From: Escherichia phage vB_Eco_SLUR75
Length of the DNA stretch: 59,880 nucleotides
Sequence record: LR025197.1
Strand: one strand, 5' to 3'
Within the stretch, counting starts at the first letter, position 1; every line of letters starts with the position of its first letter. Positions 1 to 59,880 of the stretch are shown piece by piece. The position numbers were made by a program, and so were the translations under genes. The notes beneath the pieces were generated by a model. The model saw only the letters and a program-made list of their open reading frames with translations, ran no database searches and was not told where the DNA came from.

Positions 1-127
1 CCCTTATCAGTCGCTACACGGGCGAGCCGTTAGCTGTGTTCCATGCAGCTTAAGCTATAACGCACACAGCGCCGCGCTAGCGAGCTAATGTACATAGGTA
101 ATGGTAATGCATTAGCTCGGGCGAAAC
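1..127. repeat. Terminal redundancy, identical to 59754..59880
   Basis: Exact 127-nt identity between window start and end. 127 is the maximal k-mer of common de Bruijn assemblers, so the simplest reading is a circular-contig overlap rather than a biological terminal repeat. Confidence 0.85.
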
Positions 128-2321: not shown

Positions 2322-2587
2322 TTACTGCTCAAGAAGCTCGTGAATTAAGCGATAAGCTGGATATTAGCGAAGATATTGAATTTATCAGTGACAGCATTCG
2401 CGTAGCTGCTACAAAGGGATACAATAAAGTATCACTGGTAACCAAATACGGCGCTGTTGGCAATCCTGACACTCAAGACCCGACCACTATGAAGATTGCT
2501 AAATGGTTAGCTGATTCTGGTTTTACGGTGTTATATTATCCTTCAATGGACCAACGTGATAACGAGCGTACTGAGGTAGCATGGTGA
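2318..2587 (+). CDS. Hypothetical protein (89 aa)
   Basis: ATGA overlap with the upstream stop (translational coupling). Confidence 0.5.
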   Translation: MITAQEARELSDKLDISEDIEFISDSIRVAATKGYNKVSLVTKYGAVGNPDTQDPTTMKIAKWLADSGFTVLYYPSMDQRDNERTEVAW

Positions 2588-2654
2588 TTGAAGAAAATAT
2601 CAAATATTGGAAAGGCTTTATTGACGAAATGTTGAAACCATTGGAGAAGAAATA

Positions 2655-3047
2655 ATGCTATTAGTCGTCACCGGAGGTCGAGATTTTAAGCATGTGGAGT
2701 ATATTTATGCTCAATTGGATAAGCTGCATATGCAAAGAAGGATAACCACACTTCGCCACGGTGACGCTGACGGTGTTGACCGCATTTGCGCACAGTGGGC
2801 AGAGCGCAACGGTATTAAGACAGAAGCGTTCCCTGCCCCGTGGGACAATCTTTCCTTACCAAATACCAAGATACGGTATAACGCCAAGGGTGCTTATAAT
2901 GCACAAGCTGGCGCATACCGTAACCAATTAATGCTGAATACTGATCCTAAACCAGATCACGCTATTGTGTTTCCTGGCGGAGCTGGTACTATGGATATGT
3001 ACAGACGGATTAAAGCATCCGGTATTCCTTATACTTTAGCGGAGTAA
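2655..3047 (+). CDS. SLOG/LOG-like Rossmann-fold protein (130 aa)
   Basis: VVTGGRD near N-terminus, HGDADGVD, and VFPGGAGTMD resembling the LOG-family PGGxGT motif. Confidence 0.4.
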   Translation: MLLVVTGGRDFKHVEYIYAQLDKLHMQRRITTLRHGDADGVDRICAQWAERNGIKTEAFPAPWDNLSLPNTKIRYNAKGAYNAQAGAYRNQLMLNTDPKPDHAIVFPGGAGTMDMYRRIKASGIPYTLAE

Positions 3048-3050
3048 ATA

Positions 3051-3521
3051 ATGGCTGACGTTAAAACTATTGTTGATGCAATGGACGAGTCCAAAGACTG
3101 CCAACTGAAGAAGTCGTTTGAAGTAAAACAGGTTACAGAGACTCAGTTGGTCTGTAATTTTGCGCGTTATTGTGGACTGGGGCGCGGGAAAGACTGGAAC
3201 GGGCTTATTGTTATGCCCACATCGCAGATTCTCGTTTACGTCCGCAATATTGTAGAAGATCTTTTGCGTCTTCAAATAGATATTGGTGACGTAGAAATTA
3301 ACATGACTGCGAGCTCTACCATTGTGGTTAAATGGCAGTCGGGCGAGACACTGCGTTTGGAAGCGTGCCATTGTGCTAAGAGCCTACACCACCTGCGCGG
3401 TTGTCATTACCAGTTCGTTGGGTTTGTACATCCGCAAGGGTTAAGCGAGCGTACGGCGCTTGTAGCGCGTTTGCTGCTGCGTCCTTATAATAACGAGCCG
3501 GAAGTTATATACGAGGCATAA
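3051..3521 (+). CDS. Hypothetical protein (156 aa)
   Basis: ORF packed directly after the upstream gene; no recognisable motif. Confidence 0.5.
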   Translation: MADVKTIVDAMDESKDCQLKKSFEVKQVTETQLVCNFARYCGLGRGKDWNGLIVMPTSQILVYVRNIVEDLLRLQIDIGDVEINMTASSTIVVKWQSGETLRLEACHCAKSLHHLRGCHYQFVGFVHPQGLSERTALVARLLLRPYNNEPEVIYEA

Positions 3522-47224: not shown

Positions 47225-48139
47225 TTAATCTAAAACCTGATCACTTTCATCGCGGAAATGCATAAAGTTTGCAAAACGCGGTTTATCTTTCACGCCATGA
47301 GGGAAGTGTTTATATGAAATAGTCCGACCTTTAATTTTGTCAGGGTTATTCCAATAATAAATCTTATCCTCTTGCGTTAGTTTACCAGGACTAACGTTGA
47401 TTGTATTGCCCGTCTTAACGTCTTTACAAACCAACGTCCCGATCATACCGTTAGGAACTTTATTTTCCTGATGTGAAGATCGTGTAGTCCTTCCCAGCTC
47501 GTTAACAGTAGCTTCATTAAGATTAGTTTCACCCTCAATAATATCAAGGACAATAGCATCTTCCTGAATAAAGCGTTTAATACGAAGATATCCACCTTCA
47601 CGAACTGTGCCGCGCCCATGTTTATAAGGCTTGTCAGGATCACGGATAATAATACCTTCATAACCCATATCAAGCCAGATGTTTTCCCAGTAGAGCAACT
47701 CTTCTAAAGACTTAACCACATACATTGGCACAACTTGCAGGTCGAGCAATTCACCTTTCGCGTGCTGTGTGGTTATAAAATCTTTCATCATGTTGTAGCG
47801 GGCTTCATAGCCCAGCTCTGCAACACTCTCAGCGCACAGATCAAAGATGTGCCATTTCAGGAACGGTTCACCTTCAATTGTGTTTACCGCACTGGTTGTT
47901 TTACGACACAGGTCTGGATCTGTTTCCACCCCTGCTGCAAGCTCACCGTCATAGCCCATGTATTGAGAACCGCTGAAAATTGCGCTGGTATGGCGGTTTT
48001 TAAACAGCTTTAAGCTTCGCCCTACTATCTGCCCGTCCGGATTTAAACCGCGCACACCGTCGATTTTAGGCAGTATACAGCACGGAAACTTAATCTTTTC
48101 TTCAACCGCGTCAGTCGCTAAATGTGGCTTGAATGCCAT
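47225..48139 (-). CDS. ATP-dependent DNA ligase (304 aa)
   Basis: Motif I KIDGVRG (KxDGxR adenylation lysine), motif IV-like EGIIIRDP. Confidence 0.8.
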   Translation of the reverse strand: MAFKPHLATDAVEEKIKFPCCILPKIDGVRGLNPDGQIVGRSLKLFKNRHTSAIFSGSQYMGYDGELAAGVETDPDLCRKTTSAVNTIEGEPFLKWHIFDLCAESVAELGYEARYNMMKDFITTQHAKGELLDLQVVPMYVVKSLEELLYWENIWLDMGYEGIIIRDPDKPYKHGRGTVREGGYLRIKRFIQEDAIVLDIIEGETNLNEATVNELGRTTRSSHQENKVPNGMIGTLVCKDVKTGNTINVSPGKLTQEDKIYYWNNPDKIKGRTISYKHFPHGVKDKPRFANFMHFRDESDQVLD

Positions 48140-48148
48140 ATGTCCTCC

Positions 48149-48802
48149 TTACATTTCATAGTCAAAGTCTGACCAGTCTGAGCGAGTTGTAATTGAATTT
48201 ACGCCCATACCTTTACCCATAGAACGCCGCCAAACGGTTGCAGCTTTTTGAGCTTTCTCTTTCATACGAGTATTGCGACGTAAATGTCCGCTGCCCTTTT
48301 TAGGTCTATTTTCCTTTTTCTTTGCTTCGGAAATAAGCTCTTTGCATTCCTGCAAACGGATCTTGCTTCTTTCCAATCGCATAGCAGAACGCGCACGTTC
48401 ATCGCAAAATCTTTGGGCTTTACTACGCTGGTCCTGATTACTTGTATGACCTTTAACGTGGCGAAACTCAATAGTAAGATTATATTTACGAAGTTGATCG
48501 TTCAACCATTTGAAAGCTACACCTTCCTGTTCACTCTTCCAGCTTGCCTCTTTATACACTTTAATAGCTGTTGAACAATCTGTTTGCACAATTAAATGAT
48601 CGCCCGGATGGATTAATTTAGCCTTCATTCCCTCCCAAATAACATTACAGATTGCCATTGTTTCAGCTGCATTATTATCAGGAGCTCCGCGTAACGGTCC
48701 ACCGTTAGCGTTATTTCCACGGTTGCACACTACCCAGCCACCGTATCCCGCGGCTTTTGTATTTGGACAAAAACTTGCATCAGATATAATTGTTACTCTC
48801 AT
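48149..48802 (-). CDS. RNase H-like nuclease with basic C-terminal extension (217 aa)
   Basis: Catalytic-residue pattern ISDASF...AETMA...VQTDCS...VKGHTSNQ...DERA. Confidence 0.6.
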   Translation of the reverse strand: MRVTIISDASFCPNTKAAGYGGWVVCNRGNNANGGPLRGAPDNNAAETMAICNVIWEGMKAKLIHPGDHLIVQTDCSTAIKVYKEASWKSEQEGVAFKWLNDQLRKYNLTIEFRHVKGHTSNQDQRSKAQRFCDERARSAMRLERSKIRLQECKELISEAKKKENRPKKGSGHLRRNTRMKEKAQKAATVWRRSMGKGMGVNSITTRSDWSDFDYEM

Positions 48803-51236: not shown

Positions 51237-51704
51237 TTATTGGATTGATCCGCGATCAATTAACCATTGTTTCGCGTGCGCTTTAAAGATAATGCGGTAG
51301 TCATCGAGACTAATTTCCGCGCGGATGGAATCTTTAACTTCATACCACTGCCATTCACCATTACTGAAGACAACCGGATTAAGCGGTAGAACGACCTTCC
51401 ATCCTTTACGTTCTATTTTATACATCAGAACTGGATATCTGCCAAGCTCTTTAGCAGATTGGACAGTCTGCTTCCACCATGTGTTTACTTGTGGCGTAGC
51501 ATGGTTTTTTACTTCAACCGCATGGTGGCATGTATTGCTGATATCACAACCACCGACAGCACTTTGATTCTGGTTTCGCTGAGCAATAGGTTTTTCCGGT
51601 AACTGCATCCCCAGCTCTGCGTAGATTTCGGCATAAATTGCATTAAAGAAATCACATACTTCCCGCTCACCGCGTTGACCTTTAGCGCGAATATTTACTG
51701 CCAT
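51237..51704 (-). CDS. Hjc-type Holliday junction resolvase (155 aa)
   Basis: N-terminal AKGQRGEREV matches the KGxxxERE motif of archaeal-type Hjc; ATG at M11 of track ORF with GGAG RBS. Confidence 0.55.
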   Translation of the reverse strand: MAVNIRAKGQRGEREVCDFFNAIYAEIYAELGMQLPEKPIAQRNQNQSAVGGCDISNTCHHAVEVKNHATPQVNTWWKQTVQSAKELGRYPVLMYKIERKGWKVVLPLNPVVFSNGEWQWYEVKDSIRAEISLDDYRIIFKAHAKQWLIDRGSIQ

Positions 51705-51776
51705 GTTTGTCTCCATAACTTTAATGTAAAACACTTCATAAAGAATTTTATATTGAAGTTATGTTGATCGCAAGGA

Positions 51777-51809
51777 ACAAAAAAGCCCAGGCATAAGGAT
51801 TCCTGGGCT
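51777..51809 (-). terminator. Rho-independent terminator (reverse strand)
   Basis: AGCCCAGG-cataaggatt-CCTGGGCT hairpin followed on the reverse strand by TTTTTTG. Confidence 0.65.
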
Positions 51810-51921
51810 CTCTTGATTGTCGGATAGCTTACTTTGACTGCCGTCTTCGTCTACCCTGGCCTACTTGTACAGCCTCGCCAAAGGCTGGTGACGGTTTGGT
51901 ACATCTGGCGCCGTCTCGTTA

Positions 51922-52085
51922 AACATCGTTTACATCGTTCAGTAAGTTGCGGGTTTACCCTGTCCGCTCCAGGAAGCCCAGCGAAAGTAGTTGCTGTAAG
52001 GAGGTACAGCTACCGCTTTCAAGGGCTTGAGTTAAGCATCGTTCACTAAGTTAATGTTGTTAAATTGTTAAACCTCGTTAACTGT
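51922..52085. repeat. Direct repeats CATCGTTCA(G/C)TAAGTT and clustered GTTAA motifs in noncoding region
   Basis: Two 16-bp near-identical copies about 104 bp apart plus a partial copy; five GTTAA within about 55 bp. Confidence 0.5.
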
Positions 52086-52121
52086 GGTTATCTTAAAGGA
52101 TGCAGTCTTGAATGGCAAGCT

Positions 52122-52436
52122 TCAATTTTGCGCGGTTCCCTTTGCCGCTTTTGGTGCTAAAGTACCATCATTTAACATCAACTCAAAACCTGTTACTTGA
52201 TCGGTTGGAACAATAGGGTAATTCATAATAGCCATGTGGATACGATGCCCTCCGTCACATTCATCGATGTATTCATTACCCCAATAGTATAAATGCCCAT
52301 CTCTTCGAATATCCATTGCTGTTGGGAAATCTACAAGAATTCTTTTGATTTCTTTTCGTCCTTCTTTATGCAGATTAGTTTCAATACGGATAAGCTCCGC
52401 ATAAATTGCTTCACAGATAGTGTTTACAATTCCCAT
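52122..52436 (-). CDS. Hypothetical protein (104 aa)
   Basis: ORF with HxxxH/Cys content (ECDGGHRIHMAI). Confidence 0.5.
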   Translation of the reverse strand: MGIVNTICEAIYAELIRIETNLHKEGRKEIKRILVDFPTAMDIRRDGHLYYWGNEYIDECDGGHRIHMAIMNYPIVPTDQVTGFELMLNDGTLAPKAAKGTAQN

Positions 52437-53125: not shown

Positions 53126-53149
53126 AAAGGGCCTTTCGGCCCTTTATTT
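53126..53149. terminator. Bidirectional terminator
   Basis: AAAGGGCC-tttc-GGCCCTTT hairpin with flanking A- and T-runs. Confidence 0.65.
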
Positions 53150-55490
53150 ATTCCTCTTCTCCTAAGTTTGCCATAATACCTTCAACATCTTGCGTAATGC
53201 GCCAAGCTGCGCCAGTGAATCCCAGTTTGATAGTCTCCTCCCGTGTTACCGGAACAAGAGCACCCATAGCAACCATCTCCTTGATCGTAGACTCAATTGC
53301 TGCGGACAATCCGTGGTGATAGTTTTTAAACGCGGACTTACTTGCAAGACGAGTAGTAATATCACCCCGCGTGATTATGCCTTCCTTACGCAGATCTACA
53401 CGTTTAACTTTCACCCAATCTTTAGTTAGATAATTCACACAAACCTGGCACATAGTACGGATACGAGCTTCGTCATTAGTACCGATACCCCCACTATGCC
53501 ATTCCTTCATAATGATATCCTGTCCATGACGCACAAAGTCCAAGGCCCATTGAACATGATAGGTCTGCACAACCGGATTGATCCAGTTTTCTCCCACAGC
53601 TAACAGGGCGGATAGACGTAACACCTTCAGGTGCGCACGGTTCCACGGCTGACGGATTGCTTCGTCTTTGGTTGCGTTAATATTACGGTCACATTCGTCG
53701 TTAAACTGATCACATAATGCTTCCGCATCCGGGCTAAACTGCACTTCAATACTTTGATGCTTTGCCATTGCGACTAAGGTGTGGTTAACAAGATGGCACA
53801 CCATATCCCGCAAATGCTGATCCATTGTAGTCTGCTGGTTCTTGTTTAAAGGTGGTCGATCCCCTTCATAGCGGACAACATGGAAACGGGATAAGAAACC
53901 ATCCTCCATCATTTCACGCGTCAACGCTTCAAAAAACGTGTCCGGTGTCGTTTCGCCCATGATGCTATAGGCCACACCTTGTTGAGCTTCCGTATTATTA
54001 GCCTTATCAGAATAAGACATACCACCGACAATAGACATCTGACCAGACTTTTGATAAACATCGGTGAGGTCGTTCTTGAAGCTTTGCATCGGTGAACCTG
54101 CTGGCGCTGTTGCCATTGCTTTAATAATCTTACCAAACTCACCGTTCAAGTTGATAAAAGATTGTTTGTCCGCAAAAGATTTACGCAACGCAGAGCCGGA
54201 AGCGCATCGGTCAAAAGATACAAAGCTATGAATCTGCGGAAACGGTTCCTGAAGCTGGCTAACTATATTAGATAGACCACTGTTCAACGTTTCTTTACCA
54301 ACACCAGAACGAGCAATAAGGACAAAATATCCATTAAGACCGGATTGAGGAATCTGCCAAACCTTCCCGCATACGCCAGCCATAAATCCTAGTGCTGTCA
54401 CAATAGAAATTTCTTTCACTGGTCGGACGGATGCTTTGTAGATGTACTTCGCAAGCTCCCCAGCAAGTCCCGGCGGCCAGTCAATAGCGGTTGCATCAAT
54501 AGATGTACTTTCTGCAACTACTGTCTGCCCCTGTGTTGTTTCAACAGTTACGGGCATTTCCGCTACCTGCTGCATTGCACTGTGTGCCGCTTGCATACGG
54601 GCAGCATAATCCCGCGCCAGCGCCGCTACGTTTTCCTGGGCAATGCGCTCACGCTCCATGCGACCGCGACACATACGCAAGCAACGGTCAATATGAACAT
54701 TGTTCTTATTAGCCTTCTCACGTTTGCCCAGTGCGCTATAACGGAACAGACGACGACATTGCTCATTACTTTCCGTGTAAAATGCATACATAGAAATAAG
54801 GGCAAGGTCTGCTTCAGACTGGGAAGGGAATCCCATTTCAACCCATTCACCATTAAATAACCGCGCATACTTATCACCGTTATCTGCTTCAAGTGCGCGC
54901 TGATGAATAGTTGCATCATCTTCTACCGGATCTTTTTCTACCAGTTCAATTTCATATGTCTTGCGCTGAAGATCAATTTCATTCACAAGCATCGTAAGGT
55001 AATGATCACGTTCTGCAACTGGTTTGTTGTAGACGGGATTGCCCGTGCAGATAATAAAACGCTCCTGACTATAAACCTCGACACCATCACGTCGACGACC
55101 TTTACCGATGTTACCTCTTAACCACAGGTGAACACCCAAGCCTGAGCGGCTCACTTCGGTGTAAGTATCGAACGCAGTCATGATCTGTTCGAAGCGGCGC
55201 AACTGCTCCGGCGTCGTGTGCTTCTTGGGATCAGGTTCATTGGTTGCATTCTTCACATCCAGGTCGATGCAGGTGAACGGGTCTTGTGCAGTAAGCACGA
55301 ATCCAATATAAGGTTTATTGAAATGAGCGGCGCAACCTTTGGCAGCTTCAAACGTCATAAGCATATCCGGATCGGTAACGTCCGCCGCCATCAAACGTCC
55401 AATATCGCTATCCCATACCAACGGCTTTTTATCCGCATCGGCGACCGCCCATTGTGGGAAAGCTTTAATTTCAGCGGGAAACAGTTCCAT
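53148..55490 (-). CDS. Primase-polymerase / helicase fusion (780 aa)
   Basis: N-terminal archaeo-eukaryotic-primase-like motifs CIDLDVKN and GLGVHLWLRGN; central P-loop LIARSGVGKETL. Confidence 0.6.
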   Translation of the reverse strand: MELFPAEIKAFPQWAVADADKKPLVWDSDIGRLMAADVTDPDMLMTFEAAKGCAAHFNKPYIGFVLTAQDPFTCIDLDVKNATNEPDPKKHTTPEQLRRFEQIMTAFDTYTEVSRSGLGVHLWLRGNIGKGRRRDGVEVYSQERFIICTGNPVYNKPVAERDHYLTMLVNEIDLQRKTYEIELVEKDPVEDDATIHQRALEADNGDKYARLFNGEWVEMGFPSQSEADLALISMYAFYTESNEQCRRLFRYSALGKREKANKNNVHIDRCLRMCRGRMERERIAQENVAALARDYAARMQAAHSAMQQVAEMPVTVETTQGQTVVAESTSIDATAIDWPPGLAGELAKYIYKASVRPVKEISIVTALGFMAGVCGKVWQIPQSGLNGYFVLIARSGVGKETLNSGLSNIVSQLQEPFPQIHSFVSFDRCASGSALRKSFADKQSFINLNGEFGKIIKAMATAPAGSPMQSFKNDLTDVYQKSGQMSIVGGMSYSDKANNTEAQQGVAYSIMGETTPDTFFEALTREMMEDGFLSRFHVVRYEGDRPPLNKNQQTTMDQHLRDMVCHLVNHTLVAMAKHQSIEVQFSPDAEALCDQFNDECDRNINATKDEAIRQPWNRAHLKVLRLSALLAVGENWINPVVQTYHVQWALDFVRHGQDIIMKEWHSGGIGTNDEARIRTMCQVCVNYLTKDWVKVKRVDLRKEGIITRGDITTRLASKSAFKNYHHGLSAAIESTIKEMVAMGALVPVTREETIKLGFTGAAWRITQDVEGIMANLGEEE

Positions 55491-59578: not shown

Positions 59579-59806
59579 ATGCGTAGTTTCAAATGTGTAA
59601 GCGTAAATGCTACTGGTAACGGTCTGTTCACGGCAGGTAATGTATATGACTTCAACATGGAAAGTTATAAAGACACAACGCTTACAGGTGTAATGTTCGG
59701 TGGCGCTCGTGTCGTTCGCTGCCATTTAAACAAGAACACGGAAAATGAATATACCCTTATCAGTCGCTACACGGGCGAGCCGTTAGCTGTGTTCCATGCA
59801 GCTTAA
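59579..59806 (+). CDS. Hypothetical protein spanning the terminal-repeat junction (75 aa)
   Basis: ATG at M23 of track ORF 59513..59806; its last 53 nt lie inside the 127-nt repeat, so a partial copy occupies window positions 1..53. Confidence 0.4.
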   Translation: MRSFKCVSVNATGNGLFTAGNVYDFNMESYKDTTLTGVMFGGARVVRCHLNKNTENEYTLISRYTGEPLAVFHAA

Positions 59807-59880
59807 GCTATAACGCACACAGCGCCGCGCTAGCGAGCTAATGTACATAGGTAATGGTAATGCATTAGCTCGGGCGAAAC
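59754..59880. repeat. Terminal redundancy, identical to 1..127
   Basis: Same 127-nt sequence as the window start. Confidence 0.85.

Follow-up and report, generated by a model that had tools for sequence, protein, structure and literature searches.

The window analysed here, a stretch of 59,880 nucleotides, is the genome of a Seuratvirus (Queuovirinae). At positions 51810-52121 it contains a gap that begins at the stop codon of ORF 52122..52436 on the minus strand, for which a 104-aa protein is predicted, and that extends to a minus-strand hairpin followed by a U-run. The earlier note had described this gap as lacking a convincing ORF, which holds in the wider comparison, as no reading frame on either strand is conserved among the variants of the element, which differ by indels of 8, 1, 2, 1 and 3 nt. 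It had also placed a terminator hairpin at 51777..51809; a minus-strand terminator is indeed found there, with its position refined to 51814..51779. The features of the locus, in the 5' to 3' direction of the minus strand, are the following.

52090..52118, minus strand: promoter-like site P1 (TTGCCA-17 nt-TAAGAT) from a consensus scan, beginning 4 bp past the stop of ORF 52122..52436
52027..52083, minus strand: predicted 5' leader with a putative start, A/U-rich and unstructured, containing the GTTAA cluster
51975..52027, minus strand: hairpin H1, 19 base pairs with two internal mismatches (-26.4 kcal/mol, z = -5.6)
51997..52005, minus strand: H1 loop ACCUCCUUA, which reads TAAGGAGGT on the plus strand
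51949..51967, minus strand: hairpin H2, 4-bp stem GCGG/CCGC with the 11-nt loop ACAGG(G/A)UAAAC
51916..51948, minus strand: internal linker AACUUACUGAACGAUG-UAAACGAUG-UUUAACGA, a variation hot spot that holds the first 16-mer and its partial copy
51890..51915, minus strand: hairpin H3, 5-bp stem GACGG/CCGUC with the 16-nt loop CGCCAGAUGUACCAAA, predicted in every fold
51870..51887, minus strand: hairpin H4, CAGCCUU/GAGGCUG with the loop UUUGGCG
51822..51856, minus strand: hairpin H5, outer stem GG(G/A)UAG/CUAUCC, an internal loop in which a conserved GAA faces AGUA, and the inner stem H5b
51836-51845, minus strand: H5b, inner 3-bp stem with a tetraloop
51779..51814, minus strand: intrinsic terminator, 14-bp stem, 10-nt loop and U6 (-21.9 kcal/mol, z = -5.4)
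51745..51773, minus strand: promoter-like site P2 (TTGCGA-17-TAAAAT) from a consensus scan, preceding the PDDEXK_15 ('RusA-like') nuclease and dUTPase genes

The repeats that had first drawn attention to the gap are present as described, with 16-mers at 51933-51948 (CATCGTTCAGTAAGTT) and 52037-52052 (CATCGTTCACTAAGTT), a partial third copy at 51924-51933 (CATCGTTTAC) and five plus-strand GTTAA motifs at 52031, 52050, 52059, 52067 and 52077 (51 bp). This GTTAA group is the densest same-strand cluster anywhere in the window, and when the whole window was simulated 300 times with a first-order Markov model, no run reached five motifs in 55 bp (the maximum was 4, seen once). The repeats resolve into two runs with GTTnA every 8-10 bp (52031-52081 and 51918-51941), in which the GTTAA and CATCGTT motifs form ~9-nt units (UUAAC.../GAACGAUG) located partly in the unstructured leader at the 5' end and partly in one internal linker. 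The leader holds six of these units (GUUAACGAGG, UUUAACAA, UUUAACAAC, AUUAACUUAG, UGAACGAUG and CUUAACUCA), and both 16-mers are joined by a weak internal duplication of ~104 nt, made of three in-register blocks at spacings of 104, 105 and 104 (p ~0.01 in local alignment against shuffles). Unit number differs among variants, with 9 nt more in the linker of Dru_SM1 and exactly one 8-nt unit fewer in the leader of STP-SP5. The repeats are the least structured part of the element, the leader folding no better than shuffled sequence (z = -0.56), and the run in the internal linker is its most variable stretch, with substitutions in L005, L138, L141 and PLYYY01 and an insertion of ~100 nt in L140.

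Structure is concentrated between and downstream of the repeats, and it is specific to one strand. Folded as a whole, the element reaches z = -3.46 on the minus strand vs -1.03 on the plus strand. Six helices comprising 44 pairs are 99.4% paired across 19 distinct variants, while the same pairs read as the plus strand are 91.5% paired, and G·U combinations occupy 68 cells on the minus strand vs 2 on the plus strand, a pattern that points to the minus strand as the RNA strand. Twelve pairs carry compensatory double changes, vs 3.6±1.3 in column shuffles (0 of 500 reached 12) and at most 2 when the partners were slid by 1-3 columns, although these changes amount to few independent events because nearly all diversity stems from three lineages (the common form, the S-type and STP-SP5). 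The RNA strand thus folds into six helices that are maintained by compensatory changes. H1, the longest hairpin, is 98.9% paired with 6 pairs changed on both sides, and in H5 a comparison of the common form with the S-type (SA80RD, Dru_SM1, VogelGryff) reveals double changes in 3 outer and 2 inner pairs, while PLYYY01 has an independent A-U to U-A swap in H5b. H2 shows one compensatory change, C-G to U-A in STP-SP5. H3 and H4 show no double change in any variant. As H3 is invariant, its pairing is neither supported nor contradicted by covariation, and in H4 two one-sided changes stay paired only as minus-strand G·U, A-U to G·U in Greed and SLUR76 and G-C to G·U in STP-SP5. The H4 loop UUUGGCG is complementary to CGCC...AAA of the H3 loop, so that a loop-loop contact or an alternative fold may form.

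P1, P2 and the terminator bracket the element. A consensus promoter scan as such operates at chance level (3 sites vs 2.9 expected); P1 is kept in all variants and reads TTGACA-17-TAATAT, nearer consensus, in STP-SP5, the most divergent of them. From P1, the RNA would start near 52083, 7 nt past the -10 hexamer. P2 is kept in STP-SP5 and the S-type phages although the sequence has diverged, and is annotated as a promoter in one GenBank record (SA80RD); its position probably marks the end of the RNA unit. Every version of the unit ends in a terminator. The one in the window had been overlooked by a terminator scan on account of its 10-nt loop, and at the same position the S-type phages carry an unrelated sequence that again forms a GC-rich hairpin with a U-run.

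Where the earlier note had left room for the repeats being absent from related genomes, the segment is kept in all 34 related GenBank phages, among them four confirmed carriers of the BASEL collection (Bas22, which is KurtStettler, to Bas25). A search for distant homologues (blastn 'distant') against 50,697 phages returned only 34 Seuratvirus records. Two conserved patterns each matched the same 3 contigs in IMG/VR, and in metagenomes a loop-based pattern matched 8 contigs, all Seuratvirus. The latter pattern also had one match in GTDB genomes, inside a 415-codon ORF of a Fluviicola MAG, which showed no other similarity and was taken as unrelated, and the tandem 9-mer pattern AACGATGNNAACGATG gave only scattered, apparently chance matches in IMG/VR. 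The element of STP-SP5 is 78% identical. The metagenomic variant L140 carries its extra module of ~100 nt at the internal linker; the module includes a paralogue of H2 whose loop is almost unchanged but whose stem differs (CUGU/ACAG), and no relative of the module was found in phage genomes or IMG/VR. Likewise, no donor of the S-type 3' domain was found outside the five S-type phages.

Within the carriers, the RNA and its neighbours have distinct histories. Most genomes have an RNA that is 96-100% identical, even beside flanking genes at 54-64% protein identity. Where the downstream nuclease has dropped to 58% identity, the first two-thirds of the RNA, counted from its 5' end, still show ~99%. 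Exchange of the upstream gene for versions of 54-64% identity extends as far as its stop codon, beside an RNA that remains ~98% identical (98.5% where the protein is at 54-64%), which indicates that the RNA behaves as a unit of its own. The 104-aa protein encoded there was considered as a partner of the RNA, as it occurs in exactly the same 34 genomes, and was rejected since it diverges to 44-64% beside an almost unchanged RNA. In relatives beyond the carriers, the corresponding slot is occupied by an ORF in 9g, by a tRNA-Ser in Vid5 and by a different noncoding stretch of 640 bp in PSTCR4, and is empty in K4PH164; the element was not found at the loci of 9g, K4PH164, Vid5 and Ec1-ASingh. Based on this comparison, the RNA gene appears to be accessory within the wider phage group.

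Taken together, we consider the gap at 51810-52121 to be, probably, a previously unannotated gene for a folded non-coding RNA of ~305 nt, read from the minus strand (~52083 to ~51779) in the same direction as its neighbour genes. It would be self-contained, likely with its own sigma-70-type promoter (P1, predicted) in addition to the intrinsic terminator, and may well represent, in effect, an RNA 'moron' placed among the clustered replication genes of Seuratvirus phages, at a site whose content varies. The reading is based on covariation, on the strand-specific G·U pairs and on a terminator kept in two unrelated versions. It agrees with features looked for in a stand-alone sRNA gene, namely an intrinsic-terminator 3' end and a conserved structure without a conserved frame. 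The earlier note had offered a structured 3' UTR, a small RNA and a protein-binding site array as options; the structured RNA stands, most clearly as a small RNA, whereas the binding array at the DNA level gained no positive support. A discrete RNA would be transcribed from P1 and would act in trans through its invariant, exposed sequences. Our best guess is therefore a trans-acting regulatory or decoy RNA, with a role in cis as a 3' UTR or a role at the DNA level being less likely.

Other readings of the same locus have to be set against this one. The RNA might exist only as the tail of the upstream operon, acting in cis through termination, exonuclease protection or as an RNase III/RNase E site, in which case H1, a long imperfect duplex, could be a processing site and the RNA may be released later as a 3'-UTR-derived small RNA. 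On the minus strand, ORF 52122..52436 and the element are not separated by a terminator, so that any transcript reading through must include the element. With a strong terminator at its end and a P1 whose likeness to a promoter is not significant by itself, the promoter scan being at chance level, the RNA could be no more than the 3' end of that operon. We nevertheless regard this as unlikely, with or without later processing, because ~300 nt with five conserved helices and invariant loops far exceed the needs of termination or end protection, because P1 is conserved and nearer consensus in STP-SP5, and because the upstream gene was exchanged up to its stop beside a nearly constant RNA. What the earlier note called a structured 3' UTR is thus structured, but a separate RNA gene is favoured by the promoter-like site that is conserved immediately past the stop of the upstream ORF. 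The order of promoter, long structured leader, terminator and gene is also the classical layout of a riboswitch- or attenuator-type leader, in which the folded RNA, on sensing a ligand or factor, would keep the terminator from forming and so let transcripts from P1 continue into the nuclease and dUTPase genes, which they would not reach otherwise. As seen in inverted repeats I5 and I9, CUGGGCUUCCUGG on the 3' side of H1 is indeed able to pair with the terminator's 5' arm. This pairing is lost in STP-SP5, where both strands of H1 have changed together and the terminator lacks a matching change, the unrelated terminator of the S-type offers no such partner, and a second conserved promoter lies past the terminator; with no match to a riboswitch family either, we hold attenuation to be very improbable.

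The repeats open up two further possibilities. About nine units (UKAACNNNN, three of them exact AACGAUG) could be bound by a multimeric RNA- or single-strand-binding protein, making the RNA a sponge or scaffold to which the hairpins lend stability. The units are regularly spaced in unstructured stretches, all three AACGAUG copies are exact in the 78%-identical STP-SP5 while the intervening bases changed, and length changes by whole units (+9 nt in Dru_SM1, -8 nt in STP-SP5). An A/U-rich unstructured run of UUAAC-type units beside a stable structure is reminiscent of the translational operator of T4 gene 32, where a structured element is followed by unstructured UUAAA/UAAA repeats to which a single-strand-binding protein binds cooperatively, but here the repeats lie 5' of the structures and no regulated coding sequence follows. 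We know of no RNA-binding protein that binds the UKAACNNNN motif. The hairpin loops rather than the repeats are most conserved, the internal linker is most variable and single AACGAUG units are mutated in L141 and PLYYY01. A sponge of the CsrB/RsmZ type was rejected, with ~5 GGA in 300 nt vs ~4.7 expected (counted by hand on the RNA strand) and with the GGA of the H2 loop being GGG in the window. On balance, a protein sponge seems rather doubtful. The phased GTTAA/CATCGTT units could instead act as DNA, as origin iterons or as operators to which a phage DNA-binding protein would bind, with the promoter serving activation or priming and the hairpins forming in displaced single-stranded DNA. Short direct repeats in two clusters ~104 bp apart, an adjoining AT-rich stretch (leader and repeat region, 52020-52109, 32-35% G+C), a unit spacing of 8-10 bp close to one helical turn, a GTTAA cluster that is unique in the genome as a single origin would be, and a place in the replication module ~1 kb from the primase-helicase gene all speak for this. 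The repeat clusters, the AT-rich stretch and the nearby primase-helicase gene resemble iteron-type origins and P4 ori/crr, where a primase-helicase binds repeated blocks that contain short iterons. Unlike in such origins, the units are only ~9 nt long and degenerate, and selection, to judge from the compensatory changes and the distribution of G·U pairs, is on the base pairing of one particular strand. In addition, relatives in which homologues of the primase, nuclease, RNase H and ligase genes follow one another as they do here lack the element (there is no gap in K4PH164 and an ORF in 9g), no DnaA box with at most one mismatch is present in 51700-52200, and an origin leaves a terminator kept in two unrelated sequence versions unexplained. 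The DNA-level role is therefore improbable, and the binding-site array of the earlier note, whose motif occurs nowhere else in the genome, has no more in its favour. A small protein from the 71-codon plus-strand ORF 51834..52049 is scarcely credible: the frame is open in the window and is annotated as a hypothetical protein in KurtStettler, KS_A8, WildeMaa and others, but it lies opposite to all neighbour genes, has no Pfam hit, is frame-shifted in STP-SP5, is reduced to at most 41 codons in L005 and is interrupted by the insertion in L140, and substitutions track base pairing and not codon positions.

Comparison with known families places the RNA outside all those searched. The covariance-model search that the earlier note had proposed was run with Rfam 15 (riboswitches, known sRNAs, c4/CI antisense RNAs, ribozymes, 6S, Y RNA and others) on the whole window and five related loci, and gave no match at the gathering score; permissive settings (E up to 10) returned only four matches over 601 nt, at 10-16 bits vs thresholds of 36-91. 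ARAGORN found no tRNA or tmRNA in the window or the relatives' loci except for the tRNA-Ser of Vid5 at the syntenic place. The element had no blastn match (E ≤ 1) in 5,426 complete E. coli genomes, and so has no host RNA homologue at the sensitivity of blastn. Mimicry of a CRISPR repeat, as in RNA anti-CRISPRs, was rejected for type I-E, where the best ungapped match in the element is 17/29 while six same-strand places score equally and one scores 18, and for type I-F, which did no better and stayed at chance level. An antitoxin RNA of type III (ToxI-like) was likewise dismissed, as there are no tandem repeats of ~34-45 nt, only the ~9-nt units and the weak ~104-nt duplication, and as a PDDEXK_15 nuclease gene, served by a predicted promoter of its own, comes next. 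With regard to Hfq-dependent RNAs, the U-run is at least U6 in all variants except L141 (U5) and the leader has AAC/AAU-rich triplets (AACAAU, AACAACAUUAAC); motifs of this kind are common in A/U-rich RNA. A literature search found no report of the RNA, of a Seuratvirus transcriptome or of a Seuratvirus origin.

In its layout, the unit resembles what we take to be its nearest counterparts, the phage and prophage small RNAs DicF, IpeX, AgvB/AsxR and StxS and the 'moron' inserts of promoter, gene and terminator. Like DicF-type RNAs and morons, it is an accessory non-coding unit between phage genes with a predicted sigma-70-type promoter and a U-run terminator; unlike DicF, IpeX, AgvB/AsxR and StxS, to which it has no sequence or Rfam relation, it is three to six times longer (~305 nt), has six helices and belongs to a strictly lytic phage. 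T4 encodes two orphan RNAs of a lytic phage, the stable RNAs C and D ('species 1 and 2'), which lie in a tRNA cluster and are processed like tRNAs. The Seuratvirus RNA is likewise a conserved, structured non-coding RNA of a lytic coliphage without an assigned role, and its slot in Vid5 holds a tRNA, but no tRNA-like part was found in it.

A possible clue to function lies in the loop of H1. In a comparison with the 3' end of rrsB, this loop, ACCUCCUUA, has exactly the sequence of the final 9 nt of E. coli 16S rRNA (the anti-Shine-Dalgarno tail), and it is invariant in all 19 variants while its stem covaries. Its six central bases are predicted to be unpaired with a probability of ~0.99. The match is short, as identity to 16S rRNA ends at nine bases and the GCGGU upstream of it in the window is lost in STP-SP5. 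Exposed and invariant, the loop may be likened to the C/U-rich loops by which some regulatory RNAs mask ribosome-binding sites. As it would present the sequence that the 30S subunit uses to find ribosome-binding sites, the loop could base-pair with Shine-Dalgarno elements in mRNAs of the phage or its host, or alternatively be bound by a factor that recognises the 16S tail, and either route would modulate translation initiation. The A/C-rich, unstructured leader of 9-nt repeats and the U-tailed terminator might then be where an RNA chaperone, or some other protein that binds RNA, attaches. We attach low certainty to this mechanism, which is a guess because it is built on one invariant loop and no specific mRNA target was found. 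In the phage genome, the best complementarity beyond generic ribosome-binding sequence was 10 nt at the ribosome-binding site of the ligase gene (start at 48139), a strong site like that of ORF 30620, and exact-complement k-mers (10-12 nt) were only slightly above the shuffled control; an RNA duplex scan of the genome was uninformative because the method permits huge loops.

The resemblance to ribosomal RNA may extend beyond the loop. At the promoter-proximal end, the leader sequence UUUAACAAUUUAACA matches the rrnB leader at and just after BoxA in 14 of 15 positions, and it sits just downstream of the promoter-like site of an untranslated RNA, as such sites do. Seen against the whole operon, this match has p = 0.12, and the p of ~0.007 against the leader alone is post hoc. 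Unlike rrn and lambda BoxA, the leader lacks the core GCUC, having GAGG in the window and GAGU in STP-SP5 (GAGGUUUA vs GAGUCUUA), so that only the 3' part (UUUAACAA) agrees with GCUCUU(U)A. A second rrnB match (12/13) was discarded, not being conserved. It is conceivable, if quite unlikely, that the phage makes a modular, 'ribosomal-RNA-like' decoy in which the exact 16S 3' tail in a hairpin loop is combined with other rRNA-style modules. These could, speculatively, be the GAA/AGUA internal loop of H5 and the leader resembling the rrn BoxA region. Such a decoy might conceivably compete with the 30S subunit for strong ribosome-binding sites and re-program translation during infection, or soak up a host factor or a defence nuclease that attacks the 16S tail. 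Equally tentative is the idea that its modules are gained and lost like cassettes at the linkers of 9-nt repeats, as the extra module of L140 suggests.

To our knowledge, very few non-coding RNAs of strictly lytic coliphages have been described, and almost none with a function. Since Bas22 to Bas25 grow on E. coli K-12, the RNA is quickly accessible to experiment. In all 34 GenBank genomes that carry it, the element is either left blank or covered by a spurious opposite-strand protein, and the annotation of these genomes can be corrected at once. If the loop that matches the 16S tail is functional, it would be a simple and testable example of a viral regulator or decoy that employs the sequence by which the ribosome itself recognises its sites. 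Otherwise, the RNA would still be a well-defined new structured family for Rfam, with an unusually clear record of module gain and loss.

The gap between a 104-aa ORF and a nuclease gene in Escherichia phage vB_Eco_SLUR75 holds a conserved, folded non-coding RNA unit of the minus strand that ends at a terminator. Its parts and the surrounding genes, read 5' to 3' on that strand, are listed here.

Features of the RNA and its locus
53148..55490, minus: primase-helicase gene
Between the primase-helicase gene and the 104-aa ORF, minus: small ORFs
52122..52436, minus: 104-aa ORF, directly upstream of the gap
52118..52090, minus: P1, sigma-70-like site TTGCCA-17-TAAGAT, starting 4 bp past the upstream stop codon
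52083-52027, minus: leader, six ~9-nt units, unstructured (z = -0.56)
52027-51975, minus: helix H1
52005-51997, minus: H1 loop ACCUCCUUA, invariant
51967-51949, minus: helix H2, 4-bp stem and 11-nt loop ACAGGRUAAAC
51948-51916, minus: linker, units UGAACGAUG, UAAACGAUG and UUUAACGA
51915-51890, minus: helix H3
51887-51870, minus: helix H4
51856-51822, minus: helix H5, conserved GAA opposite AGUA around an inner 3-bp stem
51814..51779, minus: terminator, 3' end of the RNA
51773..51745, minus: P2, second promoter-like site, for the nuclease gene, immediately 3' of the terminator
51237..51734, minus: PDDEXK_15 'RusA-like' nuclease gene, downstream of the gap
After the nuclease gene, minus: dUTPase gene
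L140 (metagenome contig ERZ1026901 NODE-154) 1146-1244: extra ~100-nt module in the RNA gene, flanked by 9-nt units

Compared with shuffles, the minus strand folds well (z = -3.46), whereas the plus strand does no better than shuffles (z = -1.03). Pairs of H1, H2, H3, H4, H5 and a further helix, H5b, were counted in 19 distinct variants from GenBank, IMG/VR and metagenomes. Among 836 cells 99.4% were paired, and both-sided changes occurred in 12 of 44 pairs, against 3.6±1.3 in column shuffles, none of 500 of which reached 12; sliding the 3' partners by 1-3 columns left at most 2 pairs with double changes. The compensatory changes lie in H1 (6 pairs), H2 (1), H5 (3) and H5b (2), while H3 and H4 show no changes other than to G·U. 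These events come from few lineages, namely the common form, the S-type and that of Salmonella phage STP-SP5, with further single changes in PLYYY01, L005/L155, Greed/SLUR76 and ECP2304, and the covariation therefore amounts to several independent confirmations rather than twelve. In the opposite-strand reading pairing falls to 91.5% for these pairs, with 2 G·U cells versus 68 on the minus strand; seven one-sided substitutions pair on the minus strand only and two would favor the plus strand. UUUGGCG in the loop of H4 and CGCC...AAA in that of H3 complement each other, a match outside the reach of covariation because it is invariant. The GAA/AGUA internal loop of H5 presumably resembles the bulged-G/loop-E module.

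The earlier note had seen no convincing ORF in the gap, and indeed neither strand keeps a frame among the variants, which differ by indels of 8, 1, 2, 1, 3 and 9 nt. No conserved minus-strand frame was found among them, and a 71-codon plus-strand frame (51834-52049) is frame-shifted in STP-SP5, broken in L005 and interrupted in L140. In GenBank the segment is either without annotation or assigned a spurious opposite-strand protein; the 'hypothetical protein' at 51834-52049 (+) in the KurtStettler (bas22_0061), KS_A8 (CDS0066), WildeMaa, VogelGryff and SeppeHuegi records is most likely a mis-annotation, as its frame is not conserved among variants.

The hairpin that the same note had placed at the border of the gap proved, with its U-run, to be a strong minus-strand terminator (-21.9 kcal/mol, z = -5.4), ~305 nt from P1. 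A promoter scan by itself performs at chance level (3 sites vs 2.9 expected), so it is conservation that speaks for the promoters: P1 occurs in all variants, as TTGACA-17-TAATAT in STP-SP5, and P2 across all three sequence lineages. The octamer TAACCACA (reverse complement TGTGGTTA) occurs once in the interval from the -10 of P1 to the predicted RNA start, a copy not kept in STP-SP5. This octamer is by far the commonest 8-mer of the 59.75-kb genome, with 45 copies (19 on +, 26 on -; for example at 3330, 9787, 9914, 21231, 32988, 42633, 52090 and 58720) where about 1.8 are expected, mostly within genes in both orientations, preceded by T, A or G and without conserved flanks. Its density of 0.6-0.8 per kb is the same in the 9g, K4PH164, PSTCR4 and Vid5 loci, so that it appears common to these Queuovirinae and related phages; a literature search for it turned up nothing on phages. 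Window positions 1-127 and 59754-59880 are identical, while the first and last 128 bases no longer are; this is typical of an assembler k-mer overlap in a circular or circularly permuted contig, and the real genome length is therefore 59,753 bp.

The 501 bases around the element match Escherichia phage vB_Eco_SLUR25 at 100% identity and 33 other GenBank phage records at 95-100%, all Seuratvirus (Queuovirinae), with STP-SP5 as the outlier at 78%. The element was found only in Seuratvirus, in 34 of 50,697 phage records and in 3 contigs from IMG/VR, 8 from metagenomes and 3 from Logan. Where identity of the upstream 104-aa protein is as low as 54-64%, that of the RNA is 98.5%, and the switch falls at the protein's stop codon. 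In the five S-type phages (SA80RD, Dru_SM1, VogelGryff, OddieOddie and SA126VB) the 5' two-thirds are about 99% identical beside a downstream nuclease of 58% identity, and the last third gives way to a version with only about 60% similarity; this too ends with a GC-rich hairpin and U-run, after which come P2 and a gene for an HNH endonuclease. Within this mosaic region the RNA therefore behaves as a strongly conserved unit in its own right. At about 51866, within the RNA gene and just past the 3' side of H4, similarity drops from ~99% to ~60%, and an HNH homing-endonuclease gene directly follows the RNA terminator in five Seuratviruses (L003 890-1372, L015 2544-3056, L151). The S-type switch resembles a co-conversion tract left by endonuclease homing, for which the RNA 3' domain may be the target or immunity region.

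Relatives with the same gene order fill the slot differently, with a probable ORF (9g), nothing (K4PH164), a tRNA-Ser (Vid5) or a different 640-bp noncoding stretch (PSTCR4), and the element is thus accessory. The stretch in Providencia phage PSTCR4 (Craquatrovirus; 2382-3021) is unannotated, 97.5% conserved in PSTCR7 and without a match in Rfam. Within it lie two copies each of GTTAAC and AACCAAGTGA, 12 nt identical to part of the leader (AACTTAGTGAAC), a TTGACT-17-TATAAA site, a terminator and several hairpins, of which one has the loop GGUAGACU. The stretch may be an RNA gene that is analogous to the one described here or very distantly related to it.

The 16-bp direct repeats and GTTAA cluster described earlier are both real. 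One 16-mer stands at 51933, the other at 52037 and the partial copy at 51924; the five GTTAA, all on one strand (52031-52081), form the densest cluster of its kind in the window, matched by none of 300 Markov simulations. The repeats resolve into two runs of ~9-nt units spaced 8-10 bp, and three in-register blocks ~104 nt apart (p about 0.01) hint at an old internal duplication. Dru_SM1 has one 9-nt unit more, STP-SP5 one 8-nt unit fewer, and several variants show point changes at the linker. In the metagenomic Seuratvirus contig L140, ~100 extra nucleotides are inserted exactly between two units; over 48 ungapped nucleotides (p about 0.0025) the 3' half is paralogous to H2 and the linker, its loop being nearly that of H2 and its stem a different one (CUGU/ACAG). 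This module has its own hairpins, among them CCCGCAU-GUUCGUU-AUGCGGG, and no relatives of it were found in phage genomes or IMG/VR. The repeats behave like a linker prone to recombination. All three copies of AACGAUG are exact in STP-SP5, so selection appears to act on the units even though the linker overall varies.

The H1 loop is identical in sequence to the nine 3'-terminal bases of E. coli 16S rRNA (rrsB comparison), and its six central bases are predicted to be about 99% unpaired. We infer that the RNA would be transcribed from P1 and act in trans, its H1 loop most likely pairing with ribosome-binding sequences or capturing a factor that recognizes the 16S tail, because this invariant, exposed sequence on a covarying stem is the only strong hint; the repeat leader and U-tail could serve as protein landing sites. 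No specific target was found in the phage genome, where short complementary words are only slightly above a shuffled control. The longest complementarity there to the H1 loop (10 nt, UGUAAGGAGG) lies in the ribosome-binding site of the ATP-dependent DNA ligase gene (48139-48153, minus; AUGUAAGGAGGACAUAUG), a candidate target that is not statistically distinctive.

Of the functions suggested in the earlier note, a small RNA agrees with these results. That the segment instead acts in cis as a 3' UTR seems unlikely, and a protein sponge formed by the 9-nt units somewhat more so. We give still less credit to a repeat array working at the DNA level: as a replication origin it is disfavored because relatives with the same gene order, which would need one at the same place too, lack the element, and no DnaA boxes were found at it. 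An attenuator is very improbable, as the sole candidate antiterminator pairing is not conserved. Similarity to I-E or I-F CRISPR repeats is at chance level, neither ToxI-like tandem repeats nor a toxin gene are present, and our own count gave no GGA enrichment. The leader matches the rrnB BoxA region at 14 of 15 positions, a borderline match that misses the BoxA core.

The covariance-model search proposed earlier matched no Rfam family; tRNA and tmRNA searches gave no match, blastn found no E. coli homologue at its sensitivity, and the body of papers searched contained no mention of this RNA, a Seuratvirus transcriptome or a Seuratvirus origin. The element represents a new RNA family of a general kind already known, unusual in its length, the modular gain and loss of its parts and its 16S-tail loop.
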